Assembly: GCA_964524515.1 (NCBI GenBank)
Contig: CAZGEA010000001.1
Span: forward strand, 233,522-297,521
Origin: an uncultured Gammaproteobacteria bacterium
Lineage (GTDB): Bacteria > Patescibacteriota > Microgenomatia > UBA8517
Length of the DNA: 64,000 bases
Reading direction: 5' to 3'
The notes below the pieces were generated by a model that did not search any database, was not told the DNA's origin, and worked only from the letters and a program-made list of their open reading frames with translations. A program made the position numbers and the translations under genes. Positions 30,038 through 64,000 of the stretch are shown here, in pieces (position 1 is the stretch's first letter; each line of letters begins with the position of its first letter).

Positions 30038-30676
30038 CTACTGGGCACCTTTTCCAGAAATCATAGCCCAAGGAGTCTTTAGTAAAATTAATATATCCAA
30101 AATTATTGATTTTCGTCTTGCATAATAAGCATCCATTTCAATTCGCTTATCAAAATTAACCTCACTTCTGCCAGATACTTGCCAAAAACCAGTTATACCA
30201 GGCTTAACAGTCAACATTTCTTCAACCAATTTTTTTGTAAGTGGATAAATATTTTGCTGTTTTTCAAGTTCTTCAGGATAATATGGACGTGGACCCACAA
30301 TACTCATTTCACCTTTTAAAACATTAAAAAACTGTGGCATCTCATCAATTGAATGCTTACGTATAAACTTCCCGATTGGTGTCACTCTCGGATCGTTTTT
30401 AATCTTATAATTACCAGAAGTCTGTTGTTCTTTATATGCTTTCTTAAATTTCGGATCTTTTCGAAGCAACTCGTAAGCATTAGGAATCATCGAACGAAAC
30501 TTATATGGATAAAATGGATTACCGAATTTACCAACTCTCTTTGGAATATCAGCAAAAACAGGCCCAGGCGAAGTCAATTTTATCCCAATCGCAGTCACAA
30601 TCATTACAGGAGAAAACATAATAATCAAAAACAAAGAGCCGAAAATATCAATTATTCTTTTAAGGAAGTAATACAT
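30038..30676 (-). CDS. Small initiating phosphoglycosyltransferase (Bac_transf family, PglC/WcaJ-C-terminal-like): polyprenyl-phosphate sugar-1-phosphate transferase
   Basis: Hallmark DEMPQFFNVLKGEMSIVGPRP plus an N-terminal re-entrant helix and FRSM. Confidence 0.85.
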   Translation of the reverse strand: MYYFLKRIIDIFGSLFLIIMFSPVMIVTAIGIKLTSPGPVFADIPKRVGKFGNPFYPYKFRSMIPNAYELLRKDPKFKKAYKEQQTSGNYKIKNDPRVTPIGKFIRKHSIDEMPQFFNVLKGEMSIVGPRPYYPEELEKQQNIYPLTKKLVEEMLTVKPGITGFWQVSGRSEVNFDKRIEMDAYYARRKSIILDILILLKTPWAMISGKGAQ

Positions 30677-30681
30677 ATTCT

Positions 30682-31764
30682 TTATTCTACAAACTCCGGA
30701 TGCTCTTTCTCCAATATTGAAAAAATTTCCTTTACTTTATCCGTCATATTCATATCAGCAACAAGCAATCCATCATCAGTATCAATTATTACCTTACCAG
30801 AAACACCAATAGTTACAACAGGCCTATTTGTTTTACTAATTATCAAATTCCCTTCACTTGAAATTTGAGTAAAATATTTTCCATCAAAAATATTCTCATT
30901 TTTTTCCTTTGACAGAGCATTATAAAAAAGCTGCCAGGTACCAGCATCTTTCCATTTCATAGAAACTGGCAAAACAGCCCGCTTATCCGCATCAAGTTTT
31001 TCAAAAATTCCAAATTCAATTGAATCTTTCCTTAGTTTTGAATACTCCTCACCCAAAACTCTTTCAAAATCATCCGTTCCGTAAAAACTTACTATCTTTT
31101 CAAAAGATTTATACATCTCAGGCTCAAGATCTTTATAAAAAGAAAGTAAAGTATCTGATCTCCAAGCACGATAACCAGTGTTAAGTAGCCAATCTCCCTC
31201 AGCAAACATCACATCAGCAATTTCTTTTGCTGGTTTTTCGACATGCTTAACAATTTTAAATATATCAAAATCACCATATTTTTCGATAAAATCACCCCTT
31301 TTTACCCACCCGTGATGAATTGAAGCAAATTCAGGCACTTGGTCAACAGAAACTATTAATGAGGTTTTTTCAGCAAAATCACTAGCTACCTTTACAGCTT
31401 TCAAAAAAATTTCTTCATCATCAATAATATGATCAGACCAAGAAGCAACAATTGTTTCATTTCCATATTTTTTATGAACAATAGAAGTTGCAAGACCAAT
31501 TGAGGCTAGTGTATCTTTTCTATCTGGTTCAGAAATTATATTATCAATTGGCAAATCGGGAGCTTGTTTTTTAACAAAATCTACATATCTTGATTCAGTA
31601 GAAACTAAAATATCAGTAATAGGAAAGGCTTTCTTAAATCTCTCAATTGTAATTTGAAAAAATGATTTATCCTTTATTAACGGATAAAATTGTTTTGGAT
31701 TACTCTTTCGACTCGCAGGCCACATTCGAGTTCCATATCCTCCACAAAAAATAATTATTTTCAT
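30682..31764 (-). CDS. Sugar-1-phosphate nucleotidyltransferase, mannose-1-phosphate guanylyltransferase (ManC)-like
   Basis: IIFCGGYGTRMWPASRKSNPKQF matches the ManC GGxGTRLWPLSRxxxPKQF N-terminus. Confidence 0.75.
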   Translation of the reverse strand: MKIIIFCGGYGTRMWPASRKSNPKQFYPLIKDKSFFQITIERFKKAFPITDILVSTESRYVDFVKKQAPDLPIDNIISEPDRKDTLASIGLATSIVHKKYGNETIVASWSDHIIDDEEIFLKAVKVASDFAEKTSLIVSVDQVPEFASIHHGWVKRGDFIEKYGDFDIFKIVKHVEKPAKEIADVMFAEGDWLLNTGYRAWRSDTLLSFYKDLEPEMYKSFEKIVSFYGTDDFERVLGEEYSKLRKDSIEFGIFEKLDADKRAVLPVSMKWKDAGTWQLFYNALSKEKNENIFDGKYFTQISSEGNLIISKTNRPVVTIGVSGKVIIDTDDGLLVADMNMTDKVKEIFSILEKEHPEFVE

Positions 31765-31775
31765 TTTATTACTAA

Positions 31776-32909
31776 TTATAATATCAAAGATTCAATCTTT
31801 TGACTAAATTTTTTCAAAAACTGCCCTTCTTCAAACCTTTTTGCATTCAAAATAAGCTCACTAAAATCAAATTTTTGATGATCTGCCCTTTCAATTGCAT
31901 CAATCAATGATTCAGAATTTTGTTTATAAAATAAAATACCAGTCTTATGATTTATTACAGTTTCACTATTACCCCCGAATCCATACGCAATAACGGGGCA
32001 CCCAGAAGCCTGGGCTTCCAATGAGACCAAACCAAAATCCTCTTTTTGAGGGCAAATTATTGCCTTTGCATTTAAATATAATTTTTTAAGAATTACATCA
32101 CTAACTTTCCCCATAAAAACAATATTATCAAAAGCCATTTTTTTAAGTTTGTATTCTTCAGGACCAACACCAACAATAATTAATTTCTTTTTAAATTTAT
32201 TAAATGAACTAACTACTAAATCAATTCTTTTATAAGAAACAAGACGAGAGACAACTAAATAGTAATCATCTTTTATAAATTTAGGTGTCTTAACAAAAAA
32301 TGAAGAATTAATAGGTGGATAAATAATATCTGAATTTCTTTTATAATATTTTTTAATCCTTTTTTTAACTTCTTTTGAAATACTAACAATCTGATCTGGC
32401 CGAGAAGATGAGGACAAATCCCATTTTTTTAAATAATCAACAACTGGTGATAACATTTTTTTTGTATATTTATTTTTAAAATATTCATCATACCCTGACC
32501 ATAAATATCGAGGAGGAGTAAGAATATAACTTAAATGTTTCACATTATTATTTGTAATAACTCCTTTTGCAAACTCTGAAGTAACTGACAAAACAAGATC
32601 AAAATTAGAAAAATCAAAACTTTCAAAAACCATGGGCATTAAGTATGGAATCAACCGATGTCTTTTTCTCAAAAATTCAATATTGTTCAAATTACTAAAT
32701 TTTTTATTTTTAAATTCTTTTACCCATGAAGCATCTCTTTCAAAATAAACTGAAGAATATAAATAACAATTTGGAAACAATTTCAACAGTGACAATAAAA
32801 CTCTTTCAGCACCACCCCAACTATTTGCCTTATCATAAACAATTGCAACTTTTAAATCTTCAAAACTTGCTCGTAAACCTCTGTAATTTTTTGTGACATT
32901 TTTTTCCAT
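31776..32909 (-). CDS. Glycosyltransferase family 4 (GT-B)
   Basis: KVAIVYD...GGAERV N-terminus and EDFGLVSLEAQASGCPVIAYGFGG (EX7E region). The annotated 5' end overlaps the upstream GT4 by 58 nt. Confidence 0.8.
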   Translation of the reverse strand: MEKNVTKNYRGLRASFEDLKVAIVYDKANSWGGAERVLLSLLKLFPNCYLYSSVYFERDASWVKEFKNKKFSNLNNIEFLRKRHRLIPYLMPMVFESFDFSNFDLVLSVTSEFAKGVITNNNVKHLSYILTPPRYLWSGYDEYFKNKYTKKMLSPVVDYLKKWDLSSSSRPDQIVSISKEVKKRIKKYYKRNSDIIYPPINSSFFVKTPKFIKDDYYLVVSRLVSYKRIDLVVSSFNKFKKKLIIVGVGPEEYKLKKMAFDNIVFMGKVSDVILKKLYLNAKAIICPQKEDFGLVSLEAQASGCPVIAYGFGGNSETVINHKTGILFYKQNSESLIDAIERADHQKFDFSELILNAKRFEEGQFLKKFSQKIESLIL

Positions 32910-33982
32910 GAATATCTCTTTACGAAATTAATTGATTTTAAAATTATTTCCTTTCGCTTCTTTAGATCTAAGGTATACACATCTCTCATTGATTCCGCAA
33001 TAGAGGTAAAATCATATGGATTAAAATAAAATGGATTATCTTTATAAATTTCTTTAAAAACTGAAATGTCTGATGCCAAACAAATAGTTCCAGCTCTCAT
33101 CGCATCAATTCCAGGAAGCCCAAATCCTTCAGAAAATGATGGGAAAACAAATCCAACAGAATATTTATATAGTGAATAAAGATCACGATCAGGAACAAAA
33201 CCTAACAAACGTACATACTCCATTTGCTCAACTGGGATACTTTTTGAAAGTCTTTCTATAAAAACATTTCTAGCAGATACAATTACAAATAATGATTCTA
33301 GTCCATATTGTTTATTCAACACATAGTTTGCCTCAATTGCACGATCTAAATTCTTATATGGATATGCATTTCCAGTGTAAATGAAATAAGGCCTATCAAT
33401 ATTGTAAGTTTTCAAAACTGACTCGCCAGTTGGTACCATAGGTGGATCTTCAACACCTTCATATATTGCAGTTATTTTATTTTTCTGCAAATTATAATAC
33501 TTAGAAACTTCTTCCATAACTGCAACACTTGGAACAATAACTTTTTTTGCAGACAAAACAGCATGTCGAAACACTCTATGATAACCAAGTCTTTTTGTTT
33601 TAAATAAAACTGAAGGTAGTGTGGAACTCTTAACAGTCTTTTGATTATGCATTAACAAATCATGAATCGTAACAATATAATTTCCATTAAAATTAATTGG
33701 CACATTAAAATGTAAAAAATGAACAAGATCAGGATTTATTTTTTTAATTTGTCTTGCTAAAAATAAATGTTCACTAATACTATAATGTTTAATATCACAA
33801 AGTACTTTATGAACACCATTTGGCACTCTTAAACTTTCAAAATATTTCTTACGAAGTAACAAATAAAATTCAAATTCTGATTTATTTTTTACAATCTCAT
33901 CAACAAGGCGACAAGTATATCTTCCCAATCCCGTATTTTCAAGTCCATAAAATCTTGCATCAATTACAATCTTTTTCATCAA
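32852..33982 (-). CDS. Glycosyltransferase family 4 (GT-B)
   Basis: EGFGLPGIDAMRAGTICLASDISVFKE. Confidence 0.8.
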   Translation of the reverse strand: MMKKIVIDARFYGLENTGLGRYTCRLVDEIVKNKSEFEFYLLLRKKYFESLRVPNGVHKVLCDIKHYSISEHLFLARQIKKINPDLVHFLHFNVPINFNGNYIVTIHDLLMHNQKTVKSSTLPSVLFKTKRLGYHRVFRHAVLSAKKVIVPSVAVMEEVSKYYNLQKNKITAIYEGVEDPPMVPTGESVLKTYNIDRPYFIYTGNAYPYKNLDRAIEANYVLNKQYGLESLFVIVSARNVFIERLSKSIPVEQMEYVRLLGFVPDRDLYSLYKYSVGFVFPSFSEGFGLPGIDAMRAGTICLASDISVFKEIYKDNPFYFNPYDFTSIAESMRDVYTLDLKKRKEIILKSINFVKRYSWKKMSQKITEVYEQVLKI

Positions 33983-34878
33983 AAATATAATTTAATAATT
34001 CTAAAATAAGTCATTATTTCTATAGCAAATAAAACCATAAAATTAATATAAAATGGATACTGATTCCACAACCTTTTTCTATAAAAAATCTTCATCGAAT
34101 TCATTCCAGATATTATGTATTTACGTCTATCAGAAATTTTTCTTTTAATCCCAGTTTCTTTTTTTCCTTTAGATACACCTTTAATATGAACTATAGAAAC
34201 TTCAGGGAAATATATTATTTTAAATTTTGCATTTTTAATCTTCCAACACAAATCAATATCTTCACCATCTAAAAAATAATCTTCATCAAACCAATTAATT
34301 TTATCTAGTACTTTCTTTGATGTATAACAAAAAGCACCTTCAAGACTATCGATCTCATGGGTTTCATCTTCACTGATGTATCCATACCAATATTTTGAAA
34401 ATAATTTTGAATGAGGGAAAAGTCTATCAATTTTAGAAAAATGAGTTAACGAAACCCATGGTGTTGGAAAAGATCTACGTGCATCCAAATCCAAACTTCC
34501 ATCAAGTTTAACAAGTTTACAAGTAATTGCACCAATACTATTAATACTTAAAAATTTATCTCTAACTCTAGATAAAACATTTTTAGAAATTATTGTGTCA
34601 GGATTCAAAAACAACACGTGTTCACCATTTACAAATTTCCGAGATGAATTATTTCCCTTAGCAAAGCCCAAATTTAAATTATTTTCAACGATAATAATTT
34701 TATATTTTGTTTTTATTTCTTTTAGTTTTTCTAAAGAATTATCAGTTGAAAAATTATCAACAACAATTACTTCAAACTTAATTTCACCAACTGAATCATT
34801 TAAACTTTTCAAACAATCTATTAAAACATCACAAGAATTATAGTTTAAAATAACAATTGATAATTCTATCTTTTGCAT
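33979..34878 (-). CDS. Glycosyltransferase family 2
   Basis: LSIVILNYNSCDVLIDCLKSL...VIVVDNFSTDNS. Confidence 0.8.
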   Translation of the reverse strand: MQKIELSIVILNYNSCDVLIDCLKSLNDSVGEIKFEVIVVDNFSTDNSLEKLKEIKTKYKIIIVENNLNLGFAKGNNSSRKFVNGEHVLFLNPDTIISKNVLSRVRDKFLSINSIGAITCKLVKLDGSLDLDARRSFPTPWVSLTHFSKIDRLFPHSKLFSKYWYGYISEDETHEIDSLEGAFCYTSKKVLDKINWFDEDYFLDGEDIDLCWKIKNAKFKIIYFPEVSIVHIKGVSKGKKETGIKRKISDRRKYIISGMNSMKIFYRKRLWNQYPFYINFMVLFAIEIMTYFRIIKLYF

Positions 34879-34879
34879 T

Positions 34880-36070
34880 TTATTTTATTACTTGGTTATA
34901 TATTTCATCGTGAATTTTAACAATTGTTTTCCAATCATACTTATCCTTCACAAAATTTTGTCCATTCAAACCAATCTCTTTTGAATATTTAGGTCTATTT
35001 AAAATATCAATTGTTGCTTTTGCTAATCCTTCAGCAGTATCGGATACTACAACATGTTTTCCATCTTCAACATGTAACCCCGCAACACCAATCGAAGTTG
35101 ATACAACAGGCAAACCAGCGGCCAACGCCTCTAATACTTTCAAACGTGTTCCACCAGGCCCAAAAATTGGTACAACCATAACCATAGACTTTTGATATGC
35201 TTTTCTAGTTTCTTTCATATTCTCACTAAACTCAATTGATTCATCACTATTTGATAACTGTTTTATGTCAGACGGAATACTTCTACCAACAATCCAAAGT
35301 TTTGCATTTTTATATTCGCTTATTATTTTTGGCCAAACCTCTTTAATTAAATAATTCACTGCTTCAACATTTTGTAACCATTTAAAATTCCCAACATACA
35401 AAACCCTTGGTGTTTCATATTTTGAATATTTCTTCTCTGAATAAAATGCCGAATCAATTCCATTTGGAATAATTTCTACTTTTATTCCTTTTATTTCCTT
35501 TTGCATTATTTTTCGATCATCGTCAGAAACTGCAACCAGTTTATGTGCTTTCTTCCAAAAATGTTTTTCCCAATATCTAAGCTTATATACATCAATCATA
35601 AAAATTGGTCTTAAAAACCAAGGTACTTGTGTATCAACATGGTGTTTATAAACTAAATATTCAATAGTTTGCTCAACTAAAATTGTAGGAATATTTGTAT
35701 CAGGTAAATGTGGCATAACATAAAATGTCTCAGCATGAATTAAATCATATTTTTCCTTTTTAAGTTCATCCCTTATTGCCAATCTTTCCAAATATGACCA
35801 ATTCCTAATAACTAAAAGTGGATAATAAGAGAATGCAGTCAAAAGTATATTTCGCAATGTCCATGGGGATCTAGGTCTTCTAAAAACCAACACTTTCTTG
35901 CAATACTTTTCTAAATCAGGAATAAAACGACGCTCACTCTCATCTTTTATCAAAGAAAATAACGTAATTTCATGATTTTTTGATAAATATCTAATAATGT
36001 TATACCATCGAGTTTGCCCACCAGACATATAAGTGTTTGGCAAAAATGGAACTAACATCAATATCTTCAT
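34880..36070 (-). CDS. Glycosyltransferase family 4
   Basis: GPGGTRLKVLEALAAGLPVVSTSIGVAGL, with GT-B Rossmann halves. Confidence 0.8.
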   Translation of the reverse strand: MKILMLVPFLPNTYMSGGQTRWYNIIRYLSKNHEITLFSLIKDESERRFIPDLEKYCKKVLVFRRPRSPWTLRNILLTAFSYYPLLVIRNWSYLERLAIRDELKKEKYDLIHAETFYVMPHLPDTNIPTILVEQTIEYLVYKHHVDTQVPWFLRPIFMIDVYKLRYWEKHFWKKAHKLVAVSDDDRKIMQKEIKGIKVEIIPNGIDSAFYSEKKYSKYETPRVLYVGNFKWLQNVEAVNYLIKEVWPKIISEYKNAKLWIVGRSIPSDIKQLSNSDESIEFSENMKETRKAYQKSMVMVVPIFGPGGTRLKVLEALAAGLPVVSTSIGVAGLHVEDGKHVVVSDTAEGLAKATIDILNRPKYSKEIGLNGQNFVKDKYDWKTIVKIHDEIYNQVIK

Positions 36071-37533
36071 TTTTTATTATTTGTTTTTATTTCTTTTGAA
36101 AGATCGAGAATAAAGAATTGTGGATCACTATAAACCATCTCGAATCGCTTTTTAAAATTCACAGAGTCTGTGTCATTCATCGCTGTTGATATAAAATATC
36201 TTCCACCCAATGCAATTATTTCATCAATTGATCTATCAACAGCAGGCCATCCAAATCTTTTAGTGTAATAAAGCAATACTGTATTTCCATTATCTGGAGC
36301 CACAACTTTTGCATCTTTTGGTGCAATGCTATCTAAAATTTGACCAGCTCTGATAAATTCTGAATGATTAATTTTGTAATATTCTTTTACTTGAAAAAAA
36401 GAAATTCCAAACATTAAAAAAGTACAAAAAGATAACAAGAAAAAAGAACCAATTCTTTGTCTAAGTTTCTTATAATTTAGCATTTCAGAAGCACCAATCC
36501 CCAAAGTTAGCGCAACAGCTGGAATTGCAATTGTTTGATAATAATCATGTCTCACATTTGCAGTTGCGATAATGCTTACATACAAAAACATTCCAATTAA
36601 GAAAAAATGATGAACAAATCCATACTTGTCTCGCTTTAATAATCCAAAACCAAAAGGTATCATTCCCCATATTCCAAGAATCAAAATACCCAGTCTTTCT
36701 CCAAATATCCATCTCCAAAAAGATGGTCTAAATCTAATTCCATCTCCATTAAACATCCAAGAAAATGCAGGAATTCCAACAACTTTATCAAAAATATATA
36801 TTCTCCAAATAAAAAATGGGATCATTGCAATATCAAGTGCAATTAATAATGGAATATTAAAAATTGTACCAATTATTCCATATTTTCTAATTGCCAAATA
36901 AACTGGAACTACCCCGTAAAATGCAACAAACGGTTTAACTAATATTCCCAATGCAAAAGCAATTGCTGCAGTAAACAAAAAGATTTTCGATTCGCTACTT
37001 ATATATTTCATAAACAAATAAACACCTAAAATTGCGAACATTGTGGCCATTGGCTCAGGTAAAATTACTCGCGAAAAAAAGATGTTAAAAGGCATAAATG
37101 CAAAATAAAAAGCAGACACCAATCCTGCCATTGAACCAACTAACTTTTTGCCAATTAAAAATAACAAATATGTTGTGATAACTGAAGCAACAATTGAAGT
37201 TAATCTGCCACTAACTTCAAGTGAAACAAATGGAAGTGCTTTTGCAAATATGTAATGAAAAAAATTAAACACAGGAAACTCAACCAATCTCAACCCTTCG
37301 CCATTATAATAACCAGTCTGAATACTTGATACGTCATAATATTGTGGATTTAATAAATTCAAACCTCGATCCATAAAAATTCTTGTAACAGATGCTGTAT
37401 CAACCTGTCTCCAAGAATGCCAATCAGCAACTGGCTGCGATATTTTATAAAGTCTAACTCCAAAACAAGCAACTATTATTAATAATATGGCAACAGTTTC
37501 AAATAATTTGTAAAATCTAACTGATATCTTCAT
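36067..37533 (-). CDS. GT-C-fold membrane glycosyltransferase, ArnT/PMT (GT83/GT39)-like
   Basis: Polytopic (at least 10 hydrophobic segments). First-loop motif ADWHSWRQVDTASV (the sWRQxDT motif seen in ArnT/PMT_2 family). C-terminal soluble domain of about 110 aa. Confidence 0.65.
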   Translation of the reverse strand: MKISVRFYKLFETVAILLIIVACFGVRLYKISQPVADWHSWRQVDTASVTRIFMDRGLNLLNPQYYDVSSIQTGYYNGEGLRLVEFPVFNFFHYIFAKALPFVSLEVSGRLTSIVASVITTYLLFLIGKKLVGSMAGLVSAFYFAFMPFNIFFSRVILPEPMATMFAILGVYLFMKYISSESKIFLFTAAIAFALGILVKPFVAFYGVVPVYLAIRKYGIIGTIFNIPLLIALDIAMIPFFIWRIYIFDKVVGIPAFSWMFNGDGIRFRPSFWRWIFGERLGILILGIWGMIPFGFGLLKRDKYGFVHHFFLIGMFLYVSIIATANVRHDYYQTIAIPAVALTLGIGASEMLNYKKLRQRIGSFFLLSFCTFLMFGISFFQVKEYYKINHSEFIRAGQILDSIAPKDAKVVAPDNGNTVLLYYTKRFGWPAVDRSIDEIIALGGRYFISTAMNDTDSVNFKKRFEMVYSDPQFFILDLSKEIKTNNKK

Positions 37534-40985: not shown

Positions 40986-40992
40986 AAATAAT

Positions 40993-53242: not shown

Positions 53243-53408
53243 ACAAATATAATAACCAAAACAATGTGAAGAAAAATAAATAATTTGAGATTCTTATTGA
53301 AAAACCATACTTATTAAAAAATAACACTATGATAAGAAAAAAATTTATTAAAATAATTAATAAATATCCCAGTTTACGAATCATATAAGGTGAAGTATAA
53401 CAGACTAT

Positions 53409-55283: not shown

Positions 55284-55605
55284 AAAATGATTGAAAAGCA
55301 TACACTGCAGTTCTTTCAGCCCAAACATTTATTTCAAAAAAACGCATAATAGCTGTAAATAACCAAAATACTAAAGTTATTACGAACAATGCCCTACTCC
55401 TCGCACCTAATAAAAACACAGACAAAACTATTGAAAAAAAAGTAATAAAATTTACAGTAATAGGAAAAAATGGATGAAAATATCCTGCTGATCTCAAAAC
55501 GAACAATAAAATAAGAATAATATTAAAAATTGTTAGTTGAAACTGATGTAAAACAGTCCAAGTGTTCGCTTTATTTATAATATTCTTTAAAAAAAGAAAT
55601 TTCAT
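55222..55605 (-). CDS. Small 4-TM membrane protein, GtrA-like (putative lipid-linked sugar translocase family)
   Basis: 127 aa with four hydrophobic segments. ATGA-coupled (55602-55605) to the upstream giant membrane-protein gene. Size and topology fit the GtrA family; no specific motif was verified. Confidence 0.4.
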   Translation of the reverse strand: MKFLFLKNIINKANTWTVLHQFQLTIFNIILILLFVLRSAGYFHPFFPITVNFITFFSIVLSVFLLGARSRALFVITLVFWLFTAIMRFFEINVWAERTAVYAFQSFFIGLLILIYEIVLGDKRKNK

Positions 55606-58600
55606 TTTTGTATTACCATTTTTCTCTTTAACAGATAAACACTAGTAAATAGCACTGCAGTAACTAATGATACAACTCCACCAAGAACTATCAAATTTTG
55701 CCTTTTATAATATAACCTAAATTTATAGTTACTTTTCGCACTATCAACATACCAAACATTAGCATATAAATTTCCAGTAAAGTGTGTTTCATTAATTTCT
55801 TTATCATCTCCCACAAAAACCATTTCCCAAAGTGGAGAGTAATTTTCAGAAAATACAATCAAATGTGGAGCTTTTACATTGTAGACTTCACCTTCATATT
55901 CGACCGGTGATGTTTTTGTAAATTTAATATCTGGAAGCAATAATTCCGGCTTATTTATTACTTGCTCAAGATATAAATCATTTGAAAAAACTCTATAAAA
56001 ACGAAGGTTCTTATATAACACTTTTGTTCCAAGTGCATCTTTTGTTAGTGGTGCCAACAATTCAATTTTAACATTTGAAACAGTTTGAACAGGCTCATAA
56101 TAAAAGCTAAAAGCTCCCCATTCAGGATAGTTTGGCATTCTCTCAACTTGAGCCTTAACTAAATTTTTTGTATTTCCTTGATTTATCAATATTGCAGCGT
56201 TGTTACCATAAATTTGTTTATAGTCAACAGAAACAAAATAATTAGACATATAGTCAAAACTGCCTATACTGTATTTTGCAGACACATCCTTTTTTGATTT
56301 ATTCATTATTGATAAATAATCACCATCCAAATCCCTCAAATTATTAAATTGACCTTCACCATTTTTAATAAAATTATTATCAACTAAATTATCATTTGTT
56401 ATATTTAATACAATTTCATGATCACCTTTTCCAAAGATTAATGGGGACAATCGAACATAAGTATCATTTAAACTTAAAATTTTAATTTGCGATTGCTTAC
56501 CATCAACAATTAAACTAATTCCTCCATTTAATGGAATACCAAACTTTTCTAAATTATATCTTTCAATAATTGGTGAGTATTCGCCACTCGTATTAACAGT
56601 AAATTTATAAATAACTTTACTCAAATCACGCACTGAAAGTCTATCTACTAAATTTGATTGATTATTTCTAAAATTAGTAAAATCCTCATTCTGTGAATTC
56701 TTTGCAACAATTATAGATTTTGTTTGTATACCTTTTACTTGATTGATAACACTATCATTTTGATTTGCCAAAACAAAATTCTCACTATTAAGGGGAATTG
56801 TTTTAATTGCTTTATCGTAAGGATATGCAAAACTAATTAACTGACTCACTTGCAATTTCAAAGTATCCATATTACCTTCAGGGTACTCATATATATTCCA
56901 TGATCCAAAACTTTTTGATTTCTTTTTAACAATTTGCTCAGGTAATACTGGAGAGAGACTTTCTTGATCACCTTTTTCTAATATCTGTGAAACATTTAGT
57001 TTTTTCAAAACATTATCTGCCCTATACAATTCACCTCTCTTAACACTTGAATAAAACATTTTTACAAGCTGTGAAATTGGCGATTCTGGTGCAGTAATTG
57101 GTAAAAACAAAGTTTCACGATCAACAACTAATGCCAAAACTGATTCAATTGCATTGTAACCCCACGAAAATCTTTCAATCTCATTATCTGGATAATTTAT
57201 TATTCTTCCATTTTTATTCTGGTCAATATACTTTGCTGCATCAAATAAATAACTAGGAAAATGAATATAAAAATTATCATGCATCGAAGCTCTAAATATT
57301 TTCCCCTGAACAAGTGGGTAATTATAAACTAAATTTCCAAAAATTATTATGAACCCAAAAAAAGATAATAAATACAAATATATTTTGGGATATTTATTCT
57401 CTTTAAAATTACTATTAAATGAATAAAACAAAAGTGAAATTAAACCTGCAACAGAAATAATCAAAAGTGGTGTAAAAATATACCAAGGACTTCTAAACAA
57501 ACTAAAAAATGGCAGATGCTGACTCAAAAAATGAAATATATACCCCGTAGGTAAATGTGTTCCGACACCCAAAAATACACCAATTAACATCATCAATCCA
57601 AATCCAATATATAAGTAATTTTTTTCCTTTTTCCAAAAAATTAATGCTATAAAACTAAGACTTGGAAGTAAAAAACTAAATATCAAAAAAGGTAATTTAA
57701 AAAAATAATTAACTGCATATGGGATATATAAGGGCTGATTAGTTGTCGAATCAAGTGAATACCAATCCCAAGCCCCTTGTTGCCTCCAAATATTTAATAT
57801 ACTAGTATTTTCCGATAAACTATCGATCCAATTTGTATACCCAATCTTATCAATACTTCCTGATGGTGCAATTGTTCCAAATATAAAACTAAATGTTGGA
57901 AAAATCCAAATTGCATTAATTAATAAAATTGGCACAGCTAAAGTTAAAAAATTTAAAAATGAAAATTTCAAAAAATCAAAAGTCCTTACACTTAGAACTA
58001 CACCAAACATATATATAGCAATAACTGCAAAAAAACACATAAAATATGCAGGATTAATTCCAGAACCAGATAGAATAATTCCAACAATCATTGAAAAAAA
58101 CAAAGCTTTTGGTCGACTTATACTTTTTTTATTCATATATATAATTAACACCAGTCCAAAAGGTATTGCTGAAATTAACGACAAATTAGAAACTTTTACA
58201 TTCTCCCAAGTGTTAAATACATAAACATTAAAAACATATATCGAAACAAAGATTAATTGTGATATTTTATATTTTTCAAATATCACTTTTGATAGTGAAT
58301 ACGAAGCAAAAACGATTAAACTAAACCAAAACAGTAAACTAAATAATTCAACTAATTGAAGTGAAAAGCCAAGTTTATATGGTAAATATTGAACAAAATG
58401 AAAAAACAAACCTGCAGTTGAAGATGAAAAATCACCACCAGCATTTCCAATTGGATTCCATGTAAAAAATCTCCTCAAAAACCATATTTCAGGATTCAAT
58501 GGAAAATTCGTATCTGATCCGTTTATTAATGCGTCTCCTCGCCCTTTAAACCAAACAATTGGAGTCAGAGAAAATAGAATGAGAATAATGTTTAACCAAT

Positions 58601-58634
58601 TACTTGAAACAAAACGATTAATCCTTTGCTTCAT
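55602..58634 (-). CDS. Giant (1010 aa) membrane protein: N-terminal polytopic GT-C-like domain (about 450 aa) plus a C-terminal extracytoplasmic region of about 550 aa and a terminal TM anchor
   Basis: TM1 then the GRGDALINGSDTNFPLNPE loop and many helices. The C-terminal hydrophilic beta-rich region ends with a hydrophobic helix VVSLVTAVLFTSVYLL. Confidence 0.45.
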   Translation of the reverse strand: MKQRINRFVSSNWLNIILILFSLTPIVWFKGRGDALINGSDTNFPLNPEIWFLRRFFTWNPIGNAGGDFSSSTAGLFFHFVQYLPYKLGFSLQLVELFSLLFWFSLIVFASYSLSKVIFEKYKISQLIFVSIYVFNVYVFNTWENVKVSNLSLISAIPFGLVLIIYMNKKSISRPKALFFSMIVGIILSGSGINPAYFMCFFAVIAIYMFGVVLSVRTFDFLKFSFLNFLTLAVPILLINAIWIFPTFSFIFGTIAPSGSIDKIGYTNWIDSLSENTSILNIWRQQGAWDWYSLDSTTNQPLYIPYAVNYFFKLPFLIFSFLLPSLSFIALIFWKKEKNYLYIGFGLMMLIGVFLGVGTHLPTGYIFHFLSQHLPFFSLFRSPWYIFTPLLIISVAGLISLLFYSFNSNFKENKYPKIYLYLLSFFGFIIIFGNLVYNYPLVQGKIFRASMHDNFYIHFPSYLFDAAKYIDQNKNGRIINYPDNEIERFSWGYNAIESVLALVVDRETLFLPITAPESPISQLVKMFYSSVKRGELYRADNVLKKLNVSQILEKGDQESLSPVLPEQIVKKKSKSFGSWNIYEYPEGNMDTLKLQVSQLISFAYPYDKAIKTIPLNSENFVLANQNDSVINQVKGIQTKSIIVAKNSQNEDFTNFRNNQSNLVDRLSVRDLSKVIYKFTVNTSGEYSPIIERYNLEKFGIPLNGGISLIVDGKQSQIKILSLNDTYVRLSPLIFGKGDHEIVLNITNDNLVDNNFIKNGEGQFNNLRDLDGDYLSIMNKSKKDVSAKYSIGSFDYMSNYFVSVDYKQIYGNNAAILINQGNTKNLVKAQVERMPNYPEWGAFSFYYEPVQTVSNVKIELLAPLTKDALGTKVLYKNLRFYRVFSNDLYLEQVINKPELLLPDIKFTKTSPVEYEGEVYNVKAPHLIVFSENYSPLWEMVFVGDDKEINETHFTGNLYANVWYVDSAKSNYKFRLYYKRQNLIVLGGVVSLVTAVLFTSVYLLKRKMVIQK

Positions 58635-60684
58635 ATATATTTAACTCATTTATAACCCATGAAGCAAAATTATGAGTTCCAATTTGTTCAATTCTTAAAT
58701 ATCTATATTTTTCAGGTTTCATGTATATATTTATAATGCCACTTGTATCAGGTTGTATTGCTTTTGAATAATAAACTTCTTTCCAATTAATTTTATCATT
58801 CGATAAACTAATTCTATAGCCAACTTTATCCTGATTGGAATTATTATAGGAGTCAATTTGAATATGAGCAATCGCCATTTTATCTTTAAAATCAATATCA
58901 AGATATTGATAATTTGAATATGGAAGCTGTGAATCCCAAAATGTCTCTCTTTTTGCGTCACTTAAAAACTTTATGTTTACCTTATTTAATGTTGAAGTCA
59001 CGATATAATTCTTTATCTTCCTCTCATTTGATAAATACCCCTTCAATCTACCCCTTATTTCACTAGTTGTATCAAATACTTCATTAAGCTGACTATCATA
59101 TCGAAAAGAATAAATAAAATTCATATCAATATTTTTATTCTTCACCATTTTTGCCAAATCATCAAAAACTCTATAGTATCCAAAACTTTTACCATCAATC
59201 TCCTTATAATCTTGGCTTTCAATATCCCATAAATAGTAATTATCAAAAAATTTACCGGAAAGATTTAATCTTGATTGATTATAAACCATAAATGTATGTC
59301 CAAAGCCTGACTGAAAAGGTAATATTTTATCCTTTTCAGCCAAACCATAATATGATTTATCACTTTCACTATACAAAATAAAATCATTTTGGTTATCAGG
59401 AATAATCAAAGAAGCTTTTCTCAAAATTTCAATTCGCTTTTTAGCATCACTATTTAACATATTAAAATAATTCTGAGTTAAAAATAAATTAAATACAAAA
59501 AATAATATTAAAAAAATATTCAATACTTTTCCCTTACTAAAAATTATTGGCAATATCATCGCCATCCCAATATTCAAAAAATATAAGTTACGTGAATCAA
59601 AATATACACTAAATCCATAAACCCCTGGTGATAACGAATATATAAAACTATTTAAAACAATAAAAACCAATCCGATCATTAGTATTAACTTATTATTCTT
59701 ATCGCTTGTCTCACAATATCTCGTTTTAAAAATTAAATAAAATATAAAATTTATAACAATAACAAGAGATACTGATATAACATTTTCTGAATATCTATCA
59801 AAACTTGTAGTTCCAATTCCTCCAGTTATTTTATTAGGAATTAAAGAGGTAATTTTGTTTGAAAAATAAATTAAACCATTTGAACTTAATATTAATTGAG
59901 GTACCACCTTAAACGGCGAAGTAAGCATATTAAGTATTAATGTTTGCGTACTTTGGGTTTGAGTTACAATTTGCTTATCATTTGTAGCTTGGTGAGGTAA
60001 AAATAAAGCAAAAACTCTAAATATACTGTAAATTAAAAATGATATAAAAATAAATTTAAAAACATATATTTTATATTGCTTCTTATTTGAGAAAAAAAGA
60101 TAAAATAAATAAACAATAAACATTCCAATTGATATTTCTTTAAAAAGAAGAGAAGCAAAAAGAAAAAAAACAGAAACTAATAAATCCTTTTTATTTTCAG
60201 AAGAAAATGATTTTATAAAAAAAATGAATGAGAAAATTGCAAAAATTACTGCTCCATGTGTGTTTAAATCTGTAACAACCCAAGTTGTAGCTTGAATACC
60301 CGATGCAGAAATACCAAAAATAAATGCAACTATCAATGAATATTTTTCACTATTAGATAGCTCACGCGCCAATAAATAAACTAAGCAAGTAATAATTATA
60401 TGAAAGATAATACTCACAAGTGCCCAAGGGAAATAGTTAACTTTAAATATTCCAAATAAAAAATCAAAAACCAAATCACGTAGTGGAGTGTAATGTCCAA
60501 TCTTTGGGTAAAAAAAATTAGCAATTCTATTTATAAAAGGTAGCGACTGATTCAAATAACCAGATCCAAAGGCCTGCCATTCATCTTGTTGATAGAACCC
60601 CTTAAAAAGGGGCAGATAACATACAACAATTACAAATAAAATTAATAAAATAAACTTATTTTTTTTAAAAAATTGCCACCTCAT
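58618..60684 (-). CDS. Giant (688 aa) GT-C-like membrane protein with a C-terminal discoidin-like (F5/8 type C) carbohydrate-binding domain
   Basis: TM1 then the FYQQDEWQAFG (DE) loop and about 11 helices. The C-terminus YQYLDIDFKDKMAIAHIQID...YRISLSNDKINWKEVYY...YRYLRIEQIGTHNFASWVINELNIYEA matches the discoidin pattern (W..V, S.DG.nW, R...~ E..vy). Confidence 0.5.
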   Translation of the reverse strand: MRWQFFKKNKFILLILFVIVVCYLPLFKGFYQQDEWQAFGSGYLNQSLPFINRIANFFYPKIGHYTPLRDLVFDFLFGIFKVNYFPWALVSIIFHIIITCLVYLLARELSNSEKYSLIVAFIFGISASGIQATTWVVTDLNTHGAVIFAIFSFIFFIKSFSSENKKDLLVSVFFLFASLLFKEISIGMFIVYLFYLFFSNKKQYKIYVFKFIFISFLIYSIFRVFALFLPHQATNDKQIVTQTQSTQTLILNMLTSPFKVVPQLILSSNGLIYFSNKITSLIPNKITGGIGTTSFDRYSENVISVSLVIVINFIFYLIFKTRYCETSDKNNKLILMIGLVFIVLNSFIYSLSPGVYGFSVYFDSRNLYFLNIGMAMILPIIFSKGKVLNIFLILFFVFNLFLTQNYFNMLNSDAKKRIEILRKASLIIPDNQNDFILYSESDKSYYGLAEKDKILPFQSGFGHTFMVYNQSRLNLSGKFFDNYYLWDIESQDYKEIDGKSFGYYRVFDDLAKMVKNKNIDMNFIYSFRYDSQLNEVFDTTSEIRGRLKGYLSNERKIKNYIVTSTLNKVNIKFLSDAKRETFWDSQLPYSNYQYLDIDFKDKMAIAHIQIDSYNNSNQDKVGYRISLSNDKINWKEVYYSKAIQPDTSGIINIYMKPEKYRYLRIEQIGTHNFASWVINELNIYEAKD

Positions 60685-61673
60685 TTAATAAAATTCGCCA
60701 AAAATTTTCTCCCCCCTTGAGATGTCAAAAATACATACATTATTACATTCGTTGTTATCCACACTACAATCGGTTCATACAATCCCAGTATTGTTCTGTG
60801 TTTAATCGATCTGAATATTCCATAAAACAAAGGTCCAATAATTGTCTCAGAATACAGTACCCACAATGCCAATTTAAAAATCGATTTTTTGTCTGATGTA
60901 TCTATCCATGTCCAATATCTTTTTTCATTTTTCACAAAAAAAGTTTTCTTAAGATTTCTAACTCTTTTATCAATCATAGTTTTAATGTCTGGAACAGTCA
61001 GATGATGCAAACCAGCGGATTTAACATACGCATATTTATCAAAACCTTTATTTAAAAGTATTACTAAATTATCAAGTTCATAAAACCTTTTTCTTTTTGA
61101 AATCTCATCAATCGACAGTATTTGTTTAGTTCTAAAAACACACAAACCCATTGATAAAATATTATTTTTATTAAATATCATCAAATCGTATCCATTTCTT
61201 TTTTCCGTTATTAATGACTCTACACTTGGAGTTAAATAAACAAACAAAGGGTCTCTTTGTATAGGATCAAGAGTTAAATATTTATTAAGCAATGGGTCAC
61301 TTTTATAAGAAACAAAACCTGTAGTAGAAGCTATGAGTGTTTTATCATTTTCAAGAGGTTCCACCATCTTCTTAATCCAGTATGAAGTAGGTAAATCTAT
61401 ATCTGCATCAAGGTATGTATAATATTTTCCACTTGCTCTCTTTAAAGAAATCATCTTTGCTGTTAGATAATCATTTTCTTTGTTCTTAATTATCTTTACA
61501 AATTTATATTTCCTGGCAATTTCAATTGTCCCATCAATACATCCATTATCCACAACAAAAACTTCGATTTTGCCACTATATTTTTGCTTTTTAATTGAGT
61601 CAAGACAATTCGCAATATTTTTTTCTTCGTTATATACAGGAATAGAAATAGTAATAGAAGGCATTCTTTTCAT
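60681..61673 (-). CDS. GT2 polyprenyl-phosphate sugar synthase-like (GtrB/DPM1-like: GT-A domain plus C-terminal TM helices). The start is trimmed to the MKRM methionine, which removes a 68-nt overlap.
   Basis: ITISIPVYNEEKNIANCLDSI...VFVVDNGCIDGT, and a C-terminal LALWVLYSETIIGPLFYGIF...IVVWITTNVIMYVFL. Confidence 0.7.
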   Translation of the reverse strand: MKRMPSITISIPVYNEEKNIANCLDSIKKQKYSGKIEVFVVDNGCIDGTIEIARKYKFVKIIKNKENDYLTAKMISLKRASGKYYTYLDADIDLPTSYWIKKMVEPLENDKTLIASTTGFVSYKSDPLLNKYLTLDPIQRDPLFVYLTPSVESLITEKRNGYDLMIFNKNNILSMGLCVFRTKQILSIDEISKRKRFYELDNLVILLNKGFDKYAYVKSAGLHHLTVPDIKTMIDKRVRNLKKTFFVKNEKRYWTWIDTSDKKSIFKLALWVLYSETIIGPLFYGIFRSIKHRTILGLYEPIVVWITTNVIMYVFLTSQGGRKFLANFIK

Positions 61674-61674
61674 A

Positions 61675-62859
61675 TTATTCAAAATTAAACATAGTTGGAT
61701 AAATCTTTTTATAATAAAACTTATTATTAAGTTCAACTGCATTTAATTGATACTTTTTATAATTTGACATTATTTTTTTAATTGCAGCCACTAATTGAAT
61801 CGAACTATAGTAATCAATTACGATTCCCGCTTTGTGTTTCTTGATCACATTTGAAAACTCAATAATATTTGTTGTAATCACTGGTAAACCAAAATTAATA
61901 TATCTTTTTGGTTTTCCCGGATCAGTATAAAAAGAAACAGTTCCTGGCTCTGGCATATATGGTGCAATTCCAATATGACAATTTTTCAAAATTTTTTCAA
62001 ATTGACTTTCCTCAACATATCCATAAAACTTAACAGACAGTGGGCTATTCTTAGCACGCCTCTTAAAATATAACTCTTCAGGTCCAGAGCCAATTATTTC
62101 AAAACTAATATTTGGAAAGTTTTTATGAATTACTTCCTGATTATCAAAAATTATATCCAAACCTTGGCTTTTTTTAAGTACACCAATAAATCCAATTTTA
62201 ATTTTTTTATCGTGAACTTTCATGTTTGAATTAAAATTCGCTTCACCAGTTGCAATAGGAACAACTTTATAAATTCCCAACCTAGGAATTATATTTTCTC
62301 TTTTTCGAGGTAAAATCATTCTCTTGTGCAAGAAAAATGTATTATCAGAAAAAAGTGTAGCAAATTTATCAAATTGCCAATAAACTCTTCTCATCAAAAC
62401 AACAATTTTTTTCTCGTGATTAAATGGATAATAATCCCAAACCCAAAATAAAGTATTTTTTACAAGTCCGACTTTCTTAAGAAGAATTCCGATTGTCGCT
62501 GGAAAGGCATTAACAGTAAAATAGATATCAATTTTTCCGTATCTAATATAAACACTGGCAAAGGCCCAAAAAATCTGAACGAAAGTTAAAATTGATTTCA
62601 GCGGAAGTAAAAAAAATAAAAGTTTTTGAGAAATACTAAATTCATAAAAAGGAGTCTCTTTTTCCAAAATTCCATCTTTATATATTGCTAATTTATTTAT
62701 TTTCTTTTTGTTTCCTATCTGATAAAAACCAGCCAGAAACAAAAAGACATACTTATTATTCTCACGTAAATAATCCAATATTTTTCCGGAATTATCATAC
62801 GGAAAATAATTTACATAAAATACTTTTTTTACGGAAAAATCACTCTTATCTTTTTTCAT
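61675..62859 (-). CDS. Glycosyltransferase-like protein (GT-B-like C-terminal half, divergent)
   Basis: The C-terminal region IGIAPYMPEPGTVSFYTDPGKPKRYINFGLPVITTNIIEF resembles a GT-B donor-binding half. The N-terminus has no clear match. Confidence 0.45.
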   Translation of the reverse strand: MKKDKSDFSVKKVFYVNYFPYDNSGKILDYLRENNKYVFLFLAGFYQIGNKKKINKLAIYKDGILEKETPFYEFSISQKLLFFLLPLKSILTFVQIFWAFASVYIRYGKIDIYFTVNAFPATIGILLKKVGLVKNTLFWVWDYYPFNHEKKIVVLMRRVYWQFDKFATLFSDNTFFLHKRMILPRKRENIIPRLGIYKVVPIATGEANFNSNMKVHDKKIKIGFIGVLKKSQGLDIIFDNQEVIHKNFPNISFEIIGSGPEELYFKRRAKNSPLSVKFYGYVEESQFEKILKNCHIGIAPYMPEPGTVSFYTDPGKPKRYINFGLPVITTNIIEFSNVIKKHKAGIVIDYYSSIQLVAAIKKIMSNYKKYQLNAVELNNKFYYKKIYPTMFNFE

Positions 62860-63835
62860 TAATTAATTGAGGTAAATATAATTTTACTTGTTCCTCGATC
62901 CAGTTGTAAGTCTCTAATAATCCATCCTCAAGCGAAACTTGAGGTGTCCACCCCAAAACCCGATTTACCATTGTATTGTCAGAATTTCTACCCCTAACAC
63001 CTTGTGGCCCGTCTATGTGTTTTTTCTTAATTTTAATTCCAGCAATACTAGAAACAATATCTGCCAAATCATTTATGCTTACCATTCTGTCCTGCCCAAT
63101 ATTAAGAGGTTTATTGTAATCTGATTCCATAAACAGGTCTATTCCTTTTACACAATCATCAATGTAACAAAAAGATCTTGTTTGATTACCATCTCCCCAA
63201 ATTTCAATCTCTGGATTATTTGTCAATTTTGCAATTGCAACTTTCCTACAAAAGGCTGCAGGAACTTTTTCCCGACCGCCTCTCCATGTTCCCATTGGAC
63301 CAAATATATTGTGAAATCTTGCAACTCTCATCTCGATTCCATAATCATTCTGATAATATGTACACATCAATTCATGAATCAATTTTTCCCATCCATATGA
63401 ATCTTGAGGGGAAGCGGGAAAGGCGTCATCTTCTTTCAAAGGTGAAGGGTTCTCTGTCAATTGTTTAGATTCAGGATACACACATGCAGTTGAAGAATAA
63501 AAATACTTTTTAACACCATTTTCTCTACTGGCTTCAAGGGTATTTGTACTAATCATCATATTGTTATGAAAAATTAAAGAAAAATTATTTGATATAAAAC
63601 CCATTCCACCCATATCTGCTGCCAATGAATACACTTGATCAACTCCTTCAGTTGCCATCAAAGCATTTTCAAAATTACGCAAATCAAGAAGTAAAAATTC
63701 ATTTGAGTGATCTGCTGAAAATTCTGGTTTTTTAATATCAACTCCTCTAACCCAATAACCTTTATCTCTAAGAAATTTTACAAGATGGCTACCAATAAAA
63801 CCTCCTGCCCCAGTAACCAATACTTTCTTTTTCAT
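62846..63835 (-). CDS. NAD-dependent nucleotide-sugar epimerase/dehydratase (extended SDR)
   Basis: VLVTGAGGFIGSHLVKFL (Rossmann TGxxGxxG), the catalytic triad region STACVY ... YGWEK (YxxxK), and RFHNIFGP. Confidence 0.85.
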   Translation of the reverse strand: MKKKVLVTGAGGFIGSHLVKFLRDKGYWVRGVDIKKPEFSADHSNEFLLLDLRNFENALMATEGVDQVYSLAADMGGMGFISNNFSLIFHNNMMISTNTLEASRENGVKKYFYSSTACVYPESKQLTENPSPLKEDDAFPASPQDSYGWEKLIHELMCTYYQNDYGIEMRVARFHNIFGPMGTWRGGREKVPAAFCRKVAIAKLTNNPEIEIWGDGNQTRSFCYIDDCVKGIDLFMESDYNKPLNIGQDRMVSINDLADIVSSIAGIKIKKKHIDGPQGVRGRNSDNTMVNRVLGWTPQVSLEDGLLETYNWIEEQVKLYLPQLINEKR

Positions 63836-64000
63836 AATAGATTATTATCACAGATCCACGATTTCGTAAATTCAAAACCCTTTTTAAAACTAACTCTAGG
63901 CACAAAACCCAGTTCTTTTCTTGCTCTACTAACGTCAAAATAAAAATTAGATGTCATAGCTTTTACCCTTTTTGGATAAATTAGAGGTTTAACGCGAAAC
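63832..64000 (-). CDS. C-terminal end of a second extended-SDR nucleotide-sugar epimerase/dehydratase; the gene continues beyond the window and is absent from the ORF track
   Basis: Hand translation gives ...FRVKPLIYPKRVKAMTSNFYFDVSRARKELGFVPRVSFKKGFEFTKSWICDNNLL*. It has the typical SDR C-terminal D.skA...LG..P motif. The stop TGA overlaps the downstream ATG (ATGA). Confidence 0.55.
   Translation of the reverse strand, partial: FRVKPLIYPKRVKAMTSNFYFDVSRARKELGFVPRVSFKKGFEFTKSWICDNNLL

Follow-up and report, generated by a model that had tools for sequence, protein, structure and literature searches.

A 64,000-nucleotide stretch of contig CAZGEA010000001.1 (assembly GCA_964524515.1), hereafter the window, carries a glycan locus of about 36 kb and about 30 genes, and we propose with moderate confidence, from the sequences of these genes and their relatives, that its product would be a conserved wall-associated heteropolysaccharide of this ultra-small Microgenomates bacterium, a member of the Candidate Phyla Radiation (CPR). 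The interval 27,955-64,000 holds 29 complete open reading frames (ORFs) and the tail of a thirtieth, and families were assigned by Pfam and NCBIfam scans of the window ORFs; every enzyme class needed by a wall-polysaccharide pathway is present. Its parts all belong to known enzyme classes, and what sets the locus apart is how large and how conserved it is, not its kind: a preliminary description of this DNA had called its mixture of Wzx/Wzy machinery and GT-C glycosyltransferases atypical, which is true of its size and its conservation but not of the combination itself, since Gram-positive precedents are known (PMC8035078). No prior description of the locus was found in the literature searched. 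Below, genes are named by their first coordinate and lie on the minus strand unless the plus strand is given.

The first line of evidence comes from seven large polytopic proteins, all of them GT-C glycosyltransferases and falling into two clades, one PMT_2/ArnT-like (36067, 58618, 43211 and 46349) and one AftD/YfhO-like (55602, 50633 and 53409). Within the first clade, the protein of 36067-37533 (488 AA, about nine transmembrane (TM) segments), whose orthologue has a conserved position in relatives, matched both PMT_2 (46 bits, cut-off 26) and PMT (40 bits, cut-off 22.7), and that of 58618-60684, with an invariant D34-E35, matched PMT_2 (27.2 bits, cut-off 26.1) and carries a C-terminal F5/8 type C (discoidin) domain (F5_F8_type_C, 43.8 bits). 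The proteins of 43211-44527 (438 AA, divergent PMT_2 type) and 46349-47713 (454 AA, very divergent PMT_2 type) had no Pfam match of their own in the window; PF13231 and GT39-family naming were found in nearly all of 120 homologues of 43211 among the matches listed, and PF13231 in 15 of the 26 homologues of 46349 among the matches listed (27 minus the query), likewise named GT39 family. The two families aligned with each other in hhalign at a probability of 96% over 306 columns, and the AlphaFold model of 46349 (pLDDT 86.5, pTM 0.87) retrieved STT3, ALG12, PglB and ArnT in Foldseek (TM-scores 0.5-0.65), as well as ALG9 and DPY19.

In the second clade, the 1010-AA protein of 55602-58634 was recognised as AftD-like by fold search, in which AftD ranked first, followed by STT3B, AftA, ALG12, AglB, Pmt4 and Pmt2. 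Its model has about ten N-terminal TM helices, CBM-like (carbohydrate-binding module) beta-sandwich domains in the C-terminal part and one C-terminal helix as a TM anchor, and its D41 is invariant. It had no Pfam match (E <= 0.01), and precomputed PF11847 assignments occurred on about a quarter of its homologues among the matches listed, some of which are named DUF3367 or arabinofuranosyltransferase family by NCBI. Sequence-profile searches of the PDB with the 55602 and 46349 families gave nothing useful, and fold comparison alone provided their link to GT-C structures. The 869-AA protein of 50633-53242, composed of an N-terminal TM bundle, an extracytoplasmic domain and a C-terminal TM segment, with an invariant D34, is a paralogue of 55602 (hhalign 99.7% over 742 columns); the window protein had no Pfam match, and PTPS_related was matched by 2 of 14 orthologues. 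The 624-AA protein of 53409-55283, on the plus strand, is GT-C-like, with invariant D31 and D69, and was joined to the 50633 family by hhalign at 97%. Its C-terminal 100 residues matched the YfhO C-terminus at 22.7 bits and it matched PgfM2 at 26.6 bits; its assignment to YfhO (PF09586) was rejected, the score lying below the cut-off of 28.5 and the match recurring in only 1 of 13 orthologues. Orthologues of 50633 and 53409 almost never match Pfam, and the two are effectively unannotated GT-C families. NCBIfam placed no family above its cut-off for any polytopic protein or any GT2, and the Wzx and Wzy proteins of the locus, used as negative controls in hhalign, reached <=2% against both GT-C clades.

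The preliminary description had counted about eight polytopic proteins and suggested that they adopt GT-C folds. Pfam PMT_2 matches, hhalign and the AlphaFold/Foldseek comparisons uphold that suggestion for the seven large ones, while the eighth is a 127-AA protein with four TM segments and no family. A simple hydropathy scan, from which all TM counts given here derive, found 8-11 TM segments in each of the seven, and the helices are visible in the structure models, which cover 55602 and 46349. The acidic motifs that had been read in the first extracytoplasmic loops (WRQVDT, WLDEAT, QQDEWQ and WGDAPYFYE) were all present in the translations. Six of the seven families conserve acidic residues in this loop, such as D24-E25 of 43211 (19 sequences sampled), E29 and D46 of 46349 and the acidic pair of 58618 (30 sequences), whereas the WRQVDT motif of 36067 was read in the window sequence only. 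By analogy with characterised GT-C enzymes, all seven would be inferred to use polyprenyl-phosphate-sugar donors. Three of them bear lectin-like modules, including the CBM-like beta-sandwiches of 55602 and the F5/8 type C domain of 58618; in AftD and the Emb proteins such modules bind polymer acceptors (10.1101/2019.12.22.885152; PMC8035078), and by this likeness they favour a glycan acceptor here.

The second line of evidence is gene order, which in relatives was strongly kept and not scattered. Homologues of 55602 at 43-52% identity were found in Daviesbacteria, Woesebacteria, Blackburnbacteria and Patescibacteria, and two of these relatives are represented by whole chromosomes (810,692 and 820,589 bp). 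At least 4% of such genomes of about 0.8 Mb is taken up by the locus, in keeping with the earlier remark that the organism has an otherwise reduced genome. In most of 25 genomic loci the same order recurred: the 60681 GT2, the 58618 PMT_2 protein, the AftD-like 55602, the four-TM protein 55222, 53409 in reversed orientation, 50633 and the MOP flippase, and then the 48533 GT-A enzyme, the methyltransferase, 46349, a GT4 and the 44524 GT2. This upper block from 60681 to 44524 was kept in Daviesbacteria, Woesebacteria and Blackburnbacteria, with 53409 reversed there too, and one complete chromosome was collinear from 50633 to 33979. A metagenome scan with the DUF4012 protein encoded next to the initiating transferase returned 80 loci at about 50% identity, 79 of them strictly collinear and on one strand, although locus scans of this kind favour relatives sharing exact peptide words with the query. 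Their common order runs from 38943 through Wzy_C, 36067, a GT4, a GT2, two further GT4 genes, ManC and the initiating transferase to DUF4012, and continues with RecO, in some loci DUF2130, a 244-AA ORF, MraZ, RsmH and a penicillin-binding protein (PBP), that is, into the division and cell wall (dcw) cluster. Mean identity per gene in the metagenomic loci was 36-69%, and overall protein identity was about 45-50%. An order kept at such identity and joined to dcw therefore marks a fixed lineage feature, not a strain-variable island of the O-antigen type.

Some parts vary among relatives. The region upstream of 60681 is variable, with extra PMT_2, methyltransferase and GT4 genes, and the complete chromosome that is collinear from 50633 to 33979 holds nine GT-Cs, owing to an extra PMT_2 and GT2 pair between its 53409 and 50633 orthologues and to an upstream PMT_2 gene. 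The extra genes of this chromosome (1996-6005 of locus L006 and 1-1204 of locus L027) also encode a 703-AA PMT_2 GT-C, an RmlD-GT2 fusion and methyltransferases. The DUF2130 gene of the window (26258-27400), between RecO and the 244-AA ORF, was present in no more than 10 of the 80 relatives, which are otherwise collinear, and is an insertion/deletion polymorphism. Among the locus-bearing records (L002-L026) many have the title 'uncultured Gammaproteobacteria bacterium' and one has the title 'Woesearchaeota archaeon'; such titles look like placeholders or mislabels.

The third line of evidence is the trio of a Wzx/Wzy pathway, with Bac_transf, Polysacc_synt and Wzy_C all matched above their cut-offs. 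The 212-AA protein of 30038-30676 is a small PglC/WbaP-C-type polyprenyl-phosphate phosphoglycosyl transferase, an initiating enzyme (Bac_transf 204.8 bits; NCBIfam EPS_sugtrans 260 bits and WbaP 238 bits, both under their equivalog cut-offs). The MOP-superfamily (Wzx-type) flippase lies at 49396-50670 (Polysacc_synt 72 bits, Polysacc_synt_3 64 bits), and the Wzy_C-family membrane protein, a polymerase, ligase or O-oligosaccharyltransferase, at 37517-38968 (41.8 bits, cut-off 31.7), with no sequence match in the PDB. Directly after the initiating transferase, at 27955-30021, is the gene of the DUF4012 protein (688 AA, 80 bits), whose single TM segment is N-terminal and whose extracytoplasmic part is large; it held this position in all 70 of the 80 metagenomic loci that reach that far, and is a probable accessory component. 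In a characterised exopolysaccharide (EPS) cluster of Bifidobacterium longum a DUF4012 gene likewise adjoins the priming transferase (PMC5412050), and it is the only family of this locus mentioned by Méheust et al. (2019), among the CPR-enriched envelope families.

Around these genes stands a set of further enzymes. Seven GT4 proteins are encoded, at 31776-32909 (Glycos_transf_1 97 bits), 32852-33982 (Glycos_transf_1 73 bits, Glyco_transf_4 42 bits), 34880-36070 (Glyco_trans_1_4 89 bits, Glyco_transf_4 60 bits), 40993-42120 (Glycos_transf_1 116 bits), 42130-43221 (113 bits), 45354-46370 (88 bits) and 61675-62859 (66 bits). Four GT2 proteins matched Glycos_transf_2 strongly: 33979-34878 (67 bits; one C-terminal hydrophobic helix, hydropathy peak at residue 277), 38943-39857 (106 bits; soluble, no TM segment), 44524-45357 (117 bits) and 60681-61742 (87 bits). 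A fifth protein, 48533-49399, reached only 23 bits and is a soluble enzyme of GT-A fold with an invariant D98-x-D100-E101; the profile of its family matched GmaR (2.5e-11) and SunS (3.5e-8) in the PDB, both GT-A, and its gene adjoins that of the flippase in relatives too. A ManC-like mannose-1-phosphate guanylyltransferase without a phosphomannose isomerase domain is encoded at 30682-31764 (NTP_transferase and ManC_GMP_beta-helix; TIGR01479 215 bits, cut-off 373), a hexapeptide (left-handed beta-helix) acetyltransferase at 40383-40985 (Hexapep 62 bits), an S-adenosylmethionine-dependent methyltransferase with an N-terminal four-Cys motif (CxxC...CxxC) at 47710-48531 (Methyltransf_23 100 bits), and an extended short-chain dehydrogenase/reductase (SDR) of the nucleotide-sugar epimerase/reductase kind at 62846-63835 (Epimerase 160 bits), whose top NCBIfam match was GDP-L-fucose synthase (135 bits, far under the cut-off of 500). 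The C-terminal 55 codons of an ORF cut by the window edge (63835-64000) overlap the SDR start at an ATGA; their only PDB matches were weak (E 0.02-0.9), all on the C-termini of sugar epimerases and 4,6-dehydratases, and the ORF is probably a second extended SDR.

These matches bear out nearly all that the preliminary description had recognised from the sequence alone, including a PglC-like initiating transferase, a ManC-like nucleotidyltransferase, seven GT4 enzymes, a left-handed beta-helix O-acetyltransferase, a Zn-ribbon methyltransferase, a Wzy_C-motif protein and a Wzx-like MOP protein, and by the profile searches its glycosyltransferase calls were not false positives. Its count of six GT2/GT-A enzymes falls to five, the weak 48533 included, and of its two extended SDRs one is complete and the other present as the edge-cut tail only.

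Two of the GT2 proteins, 44524 and 60681, end in two TM helices, an architecture like that of GtrB/CsbB, and by hydropathy these helices were kept in 4 of 4 orthologues of 44524 and in 10 of 13 members of the 60681 family. The helices together with the adjoining GT-C genes give the layout of GtrB/CsbB donor synthases (PMC8035078, PMC11127046), and the profile of 44524 matched DPMS, GtrB and ArnC among other PDB entries, none of these three being top-ranked. By analogy, both are candidate polyprenyl-phosphate-sugar synthases. Two small membrane proteins of no known family accompany these enzymes. The 127-AA, four-TM protein of 55222-55605 always has its gene immediately behind that of the AftD-like enzyme (more than 20 loci, within L002-L025), and its family is about 125 AA long, with the motifs LLRSAGYFxPF and DVWAERTAxY; none of 22 members had a Pfam match and no NCBIfam model applied. 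It is of GtrA-like size, yet without a GtrA match in the 22 members, and it is a candidate for a small flippase or a GacJ-like helper, again by analogy. The 178-AA protein of 39850-40386, with N- and C-terminal TM segments, had no Pfam or NCBIfam match, and counterparts of about 170-178 AA occupy a fixed place between the hexapeptide acetyltransferase and the 38943 GT2 (15483-15992 in L028 and 14715-15227 in L027).

The layout of the genes is compact. The window has a G+C content of about 28% and nearly all of its genes on the minus strand. With ORF starts set by a first-start rule, 19 of 25 same-strand junctions are overlaps, nine of them of exactly 4 nt, and the other six are gaps of 1-11 nt; the longest overlaps (38-68 nt) may be an artefact of that rule. 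The sole plus-strand gene of the array, the GT-C gene 53409-55283, runs towards 55222-55605, which it overlaps by 62 nt, and away from 50633-53242, from which 166 nt separate it; it therefore divides the array into at least two minus-strand runs. The picture of one long, translationally coupled, co-directional array between 30,038 and 64,000 thus stands as far as the overlaps and the genes in that range go, but the array is split by 53409, is extended below 30,038 by the DUF4012 gene and also runs on beyond 64,000. A scan for promoters and terminators over about 52.9-55.7 kb gave counts equal to those in shuffled sequence. The possibility that 53409-55283 is an invertible segment was rejected; the inverted repeats were chance-level and AT-rich, and the orientation is kept in relatives. 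GC skew was negative in each 2-kb bin (-0.11 to -0.32) across positions 1-64000, with a monotonic fall of the cumulative skew, in agreement with a single replichore whose genes point in the direction of replication.

Starting from the observed families, the GT-C identities, the lectin-like domains and the conserved order, we drew the steps of a possible pathway from what is known of the families and from the arrangement of the genes. GDP-mannose and modified nucleotide sugars would come from the ManC-like enzyme and the SDRs. The small phosphoglycosyl transferase would start the glycan on undecaprenyl phosphate at the inner membrane face, the seven GT4 enzymes would extend it together with the soluble GT2/GT-A proteins, and the methyltransferase and the acetyltransferase would decorate it. 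The MOP flippase would carry the lipid-linked unit outward, where the Wzy_C protein may polymerise or ligate it. In parallel, 44524 and 60681, possibly also 33979, would load single sugars onto polyprenyl phosphate, and either the same MOP protein or the four-TM protein 55222 would flip these donors. Outside the membrane the seven GT-Cs would add branches or further chains, three of them perhaps holding the polymer with their lectin-like domains, and the DUF4012 protein may serve as an extracytoplasmic accessory. The fixed place of the locus directly upstream of mraZ and the dcw cluster suggests that the polymer is made alongside peptidoglycan, as a core layer of the envelope and not a variable antigen.

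Several points weigh against this reading of a wall-associated heteropolysaccharide. The PDB profile searches and NCBIfam do not single out the GT2 enzymes as polyprenyl-phosphate-sugar synthases, and no GtrA-family flippase was detectable by Pfam or NCBIfam. The Wzy_C family spans not only polymerases but also ligases and protein O-oligosaccharyltransferases. No Wzz/PCP chain-length regulator, LCP ligase or other anchoring enzyme was found among the scanned ORFs of the 64-kb window, and these may lie elsewhere in the genome; because the window holds no LCP-type ligase or anchoring enzyme, attachment to peptidoglycan is unsupported. The adjacency to dcw could follow from nothing more than how compact these genomes are and how strongly their genes favour one strand, the cluster of one relative stops right after its 36067 orthologue, and all compared sequences are from uncultured organisms.

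The locus resembles a union of two known arrangements, a Wzx/Wzy-type repeat-unit pathway and the multi-component transmembrane glycosylation of Gram-positive bacteria. Among known systems, Gram-positive transmembrane glycosylation (CsbB/GtcA/YfhO, GtlA/GtlB, GacI/J/K/L and Lactococcus lactis CsdAB-EF; PMC8035078, PMC5836110) is similar in that the gene of a membrane-anchored GT-A enzyme stands beside that of a PMT_2- or YfhO-like GT-C, in the Wzx-type flippase (cf. GacK) and in a small membrane helper (cf. GacJ), both of these being candidate roles here, and in the acceptor, which in those systems is a wall polymer of a cell without an outer membrane and may be likened to the wall polymer proposed here. 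A Wzx-type flippase and a GT-C are already paired in GacK/GacL and in the secondary cell wall polysaccharide of Bacillus anthracis (PMC8035078). The differences are that seven GT-Cs are contiguous in the window, whereas the Gram-positive systems have one to three dispersed pairs, that no GtrA-family protein was detectable, that 53409 falls below the YfhO cut-off, and that the donor-synthase role of the GT2 enzymes is putative. Three-component O-antigen modification (Gtr; GT136 pentofuranose, PMC11127046) follows the same logic as the pathway proposed here, in that the sugar is donated as a lipid-linked monosaccharide, flipped by a MATE/MOP protein or a small transporter and transferred after polymerisation by a CBM-bearing GT-C; in those systems a single side-chain is added to a variable O-antigen in diderms, whereas here there are many GT-Cs in a conserved locus and no phosphoribosyl-pyrophosphate-dependent synthase. 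With Wzx/Wzy capsule, EPS and O-antigen loci the window has in common the initiating transferase, GT4 and GT2 enzymes, MOP flippase, Wzy_C protein, acetyltransferase, methyltransferase and nucleotide-sugar genes, and with the B. longum EPS cluster also the DUF4012 gene beside the priming transferase (PMC5412050). Unlike them, it showed no chain-length regulator, tyrosine kinase or LCP ligase among its scanned ORFs, and while such loci are usually strain-variable this one keeps its order, fixed upstream of dcw.

An alternative that we consider unlikely is protein O-glycosylation, in which the Wzy_C protein would act as a PglL-like O-oligosaccharyltransferase, passing the lipid-linked oligosaccharide en bloc to S-layer proteins or pilins, and the PMT-type GT-Cs would O-mannosylate secreted proteins with polyprenyl-phosphate-mannose as donor. 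Several of the observations above are consistent with it: 36067 passes the PMT and PMT_2 cut-offs and in this resembles the protein O-mannosyltransferases (GT39/PMT) of Actinobacteria and eukaryotes, Pmt2 and Pmt4 match the GT-C core structurally, many homologues of 43211 are named mannosyltransferase or GT39, and a ManC-like gene is in the locus. The Wzy_C family does include O-oligosaccharyltransferases. Among solved proteins, the nearest to the 48533 family are GmaR and SunS, GT2 enzymes that glycosylate proteins or peptides, and 53409 weakly matches PgfM2 of streptococcal adhesin glycosylation. Abundant pili and Gram-positive-like envelopes have been described on CPR cells (PMC6744442). 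Yet the Pfam scans reported no MIR domain on the PMT-like proteins, which are about 440-490 AA long, the lectin-type modules of three GT-Cs point to glycan acceptors, the locus encodes no protein that would be a candidate target, and seven GT4, five GT2 and seven GT-C enzymes far exceed the known needs of O-glycosylation.

Somewhat less probable again is a set of independent neighbours, one Wzx/Wzy polymer accompanied by separate GT2/GT-C modules that act on other envelope polymers, for instance teichoic-acid-like ones, comparable to the dispersed CsbB/YfhO-type pairs of Firmicutes. The repeated placement of a GT2 gene beside a GT-C gene (60681/58618, 44524/43211 and 38943/36067), the division into at least two transcription runs by one opposite-strand gene, the variable region upstream of 60681 and the extra PMT_2 and GT2 pairs inserted in one relative would all suit such an arrangement, but no teichoic-acid synthesis genes were seen in the window, and a gene order that is retained in nearly every case, with proteins about 45-50% identical, is difficult to account for if the parts do not cooperate.

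The enzyme inventory also recalls mycobacterial and corynebacterial arabinogalactan and lipoarabinomannan (LAM) synthesis (AftA-D, EmbA-C), which the locus resembles in its number of GT-Cs and in its CBM-bearing AftD-like enzyme. The resemblance has limits, as 55602 misses PF11847 itself, is about 10-12% identical to AftD, and has 1010 AA with about ten N-terminal and one C-terminal TM segments, as against about 1400 AA, 16 TM segments, three CBMs and a bound acyl carrier protein in AftD (10.1101/2019.12.22.885152). The window lacks decaprenyl-phosphate-arabinose genes and has instead a phosphoglycosyl transferase, a MOP flippase and a Wzy_C protein; because of the missing arabinose-donor genes and the different architecture, the locus is not a member of the AftD system. 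The least probable alternative, a membrane-anchored lipoglycan like mycobacterial lipomannan (LM) or LAM, with GT4 enzymes mannosylating a lipid anchor and GT-Cs extending it outside from polyprenyl-phosphate sugars, would agree with the presence of the LM/LAM enzyme classes (GT4, ManC, PMT_2-type and CBM-bearing AftD-like GT-Cs; 10.1101/2019.12.22.885152) and with the mannosyltransferase-rich pathways of other CPR genomes (PMC6031116), but decaprenyl-phosphate-arabinose pathway genes are absent among the scanned window ORFs, and to judge from the phosphoglycosyl transferase, MOP flippase and Wzy_C protein the intermediate would be linked to undecaprenyl diphosphate and would not start from a glycolipid primer.

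Outside the glycan locus, the window holds a complete division and wall block at 5964-25408 on the same strand, comprising MraZ, RsmH, an FtsL-like protein, PBP, Ddl, MraY, FtsW, MurG, FtsA, FtsZ, IleRS and a second protein of the SEDS family, with a Mur ligase and an alpha/beta hydrolase on the plus strand within it (17004-19126). Inserted between PBP and Ddl are an NTP_transf_3/IspD-like nucleotidyltransferase (21356-22096) and a 338-AA familyless ORF (20343-21359), a pair that recurs in two metagenomic loci (L031 and L048). Far from the glycan locus are a GT2 with a Glyco_transf_7C region (651-1526), a 627-AA Peptidase_C39_2 protein (1580-3463, plus strand) and a tRNA-Val(CAC) at 3683-3757.

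CPR/Patescibacteria have been described as having lost most polysaccharide metabolism (PMC7137472). In contrast to that described loss, a Microgenomates lineage spends about 36 kb, at least 4% of a genome of about 0.8 Mb, on one glycan locus whose order is kept across candidate phyla. Going beyond the heteropolysaccharide proposed above, we raise tentatively, as a possibility that we favour less, that the product is a second wall polymer by which the Microgenomates lineage is defined. It would be similar to arabinogalactan, be produced in step with peptidoglycan and be built mostly outside the membrane by seven to nine GT-Cs, with two Pfam-less families (50633 and 53409) and a new four-TM partner (55222) among its machinery, and it would form the surface that these ultra-small episymbionts show to their hosts. 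The locus offers well-conserved and well-modelled divergent GT-C members, along with the unannotated four-TM partner, for heterologous testing. If the product is indeed a core envelope polymer, lectins or antibodies could label or enrich uncultured Microgenomates, and the finding would help to read their unusual envelopes in cryo-electron microscopy and would prompt the question of how the cells are attached to their hosts.

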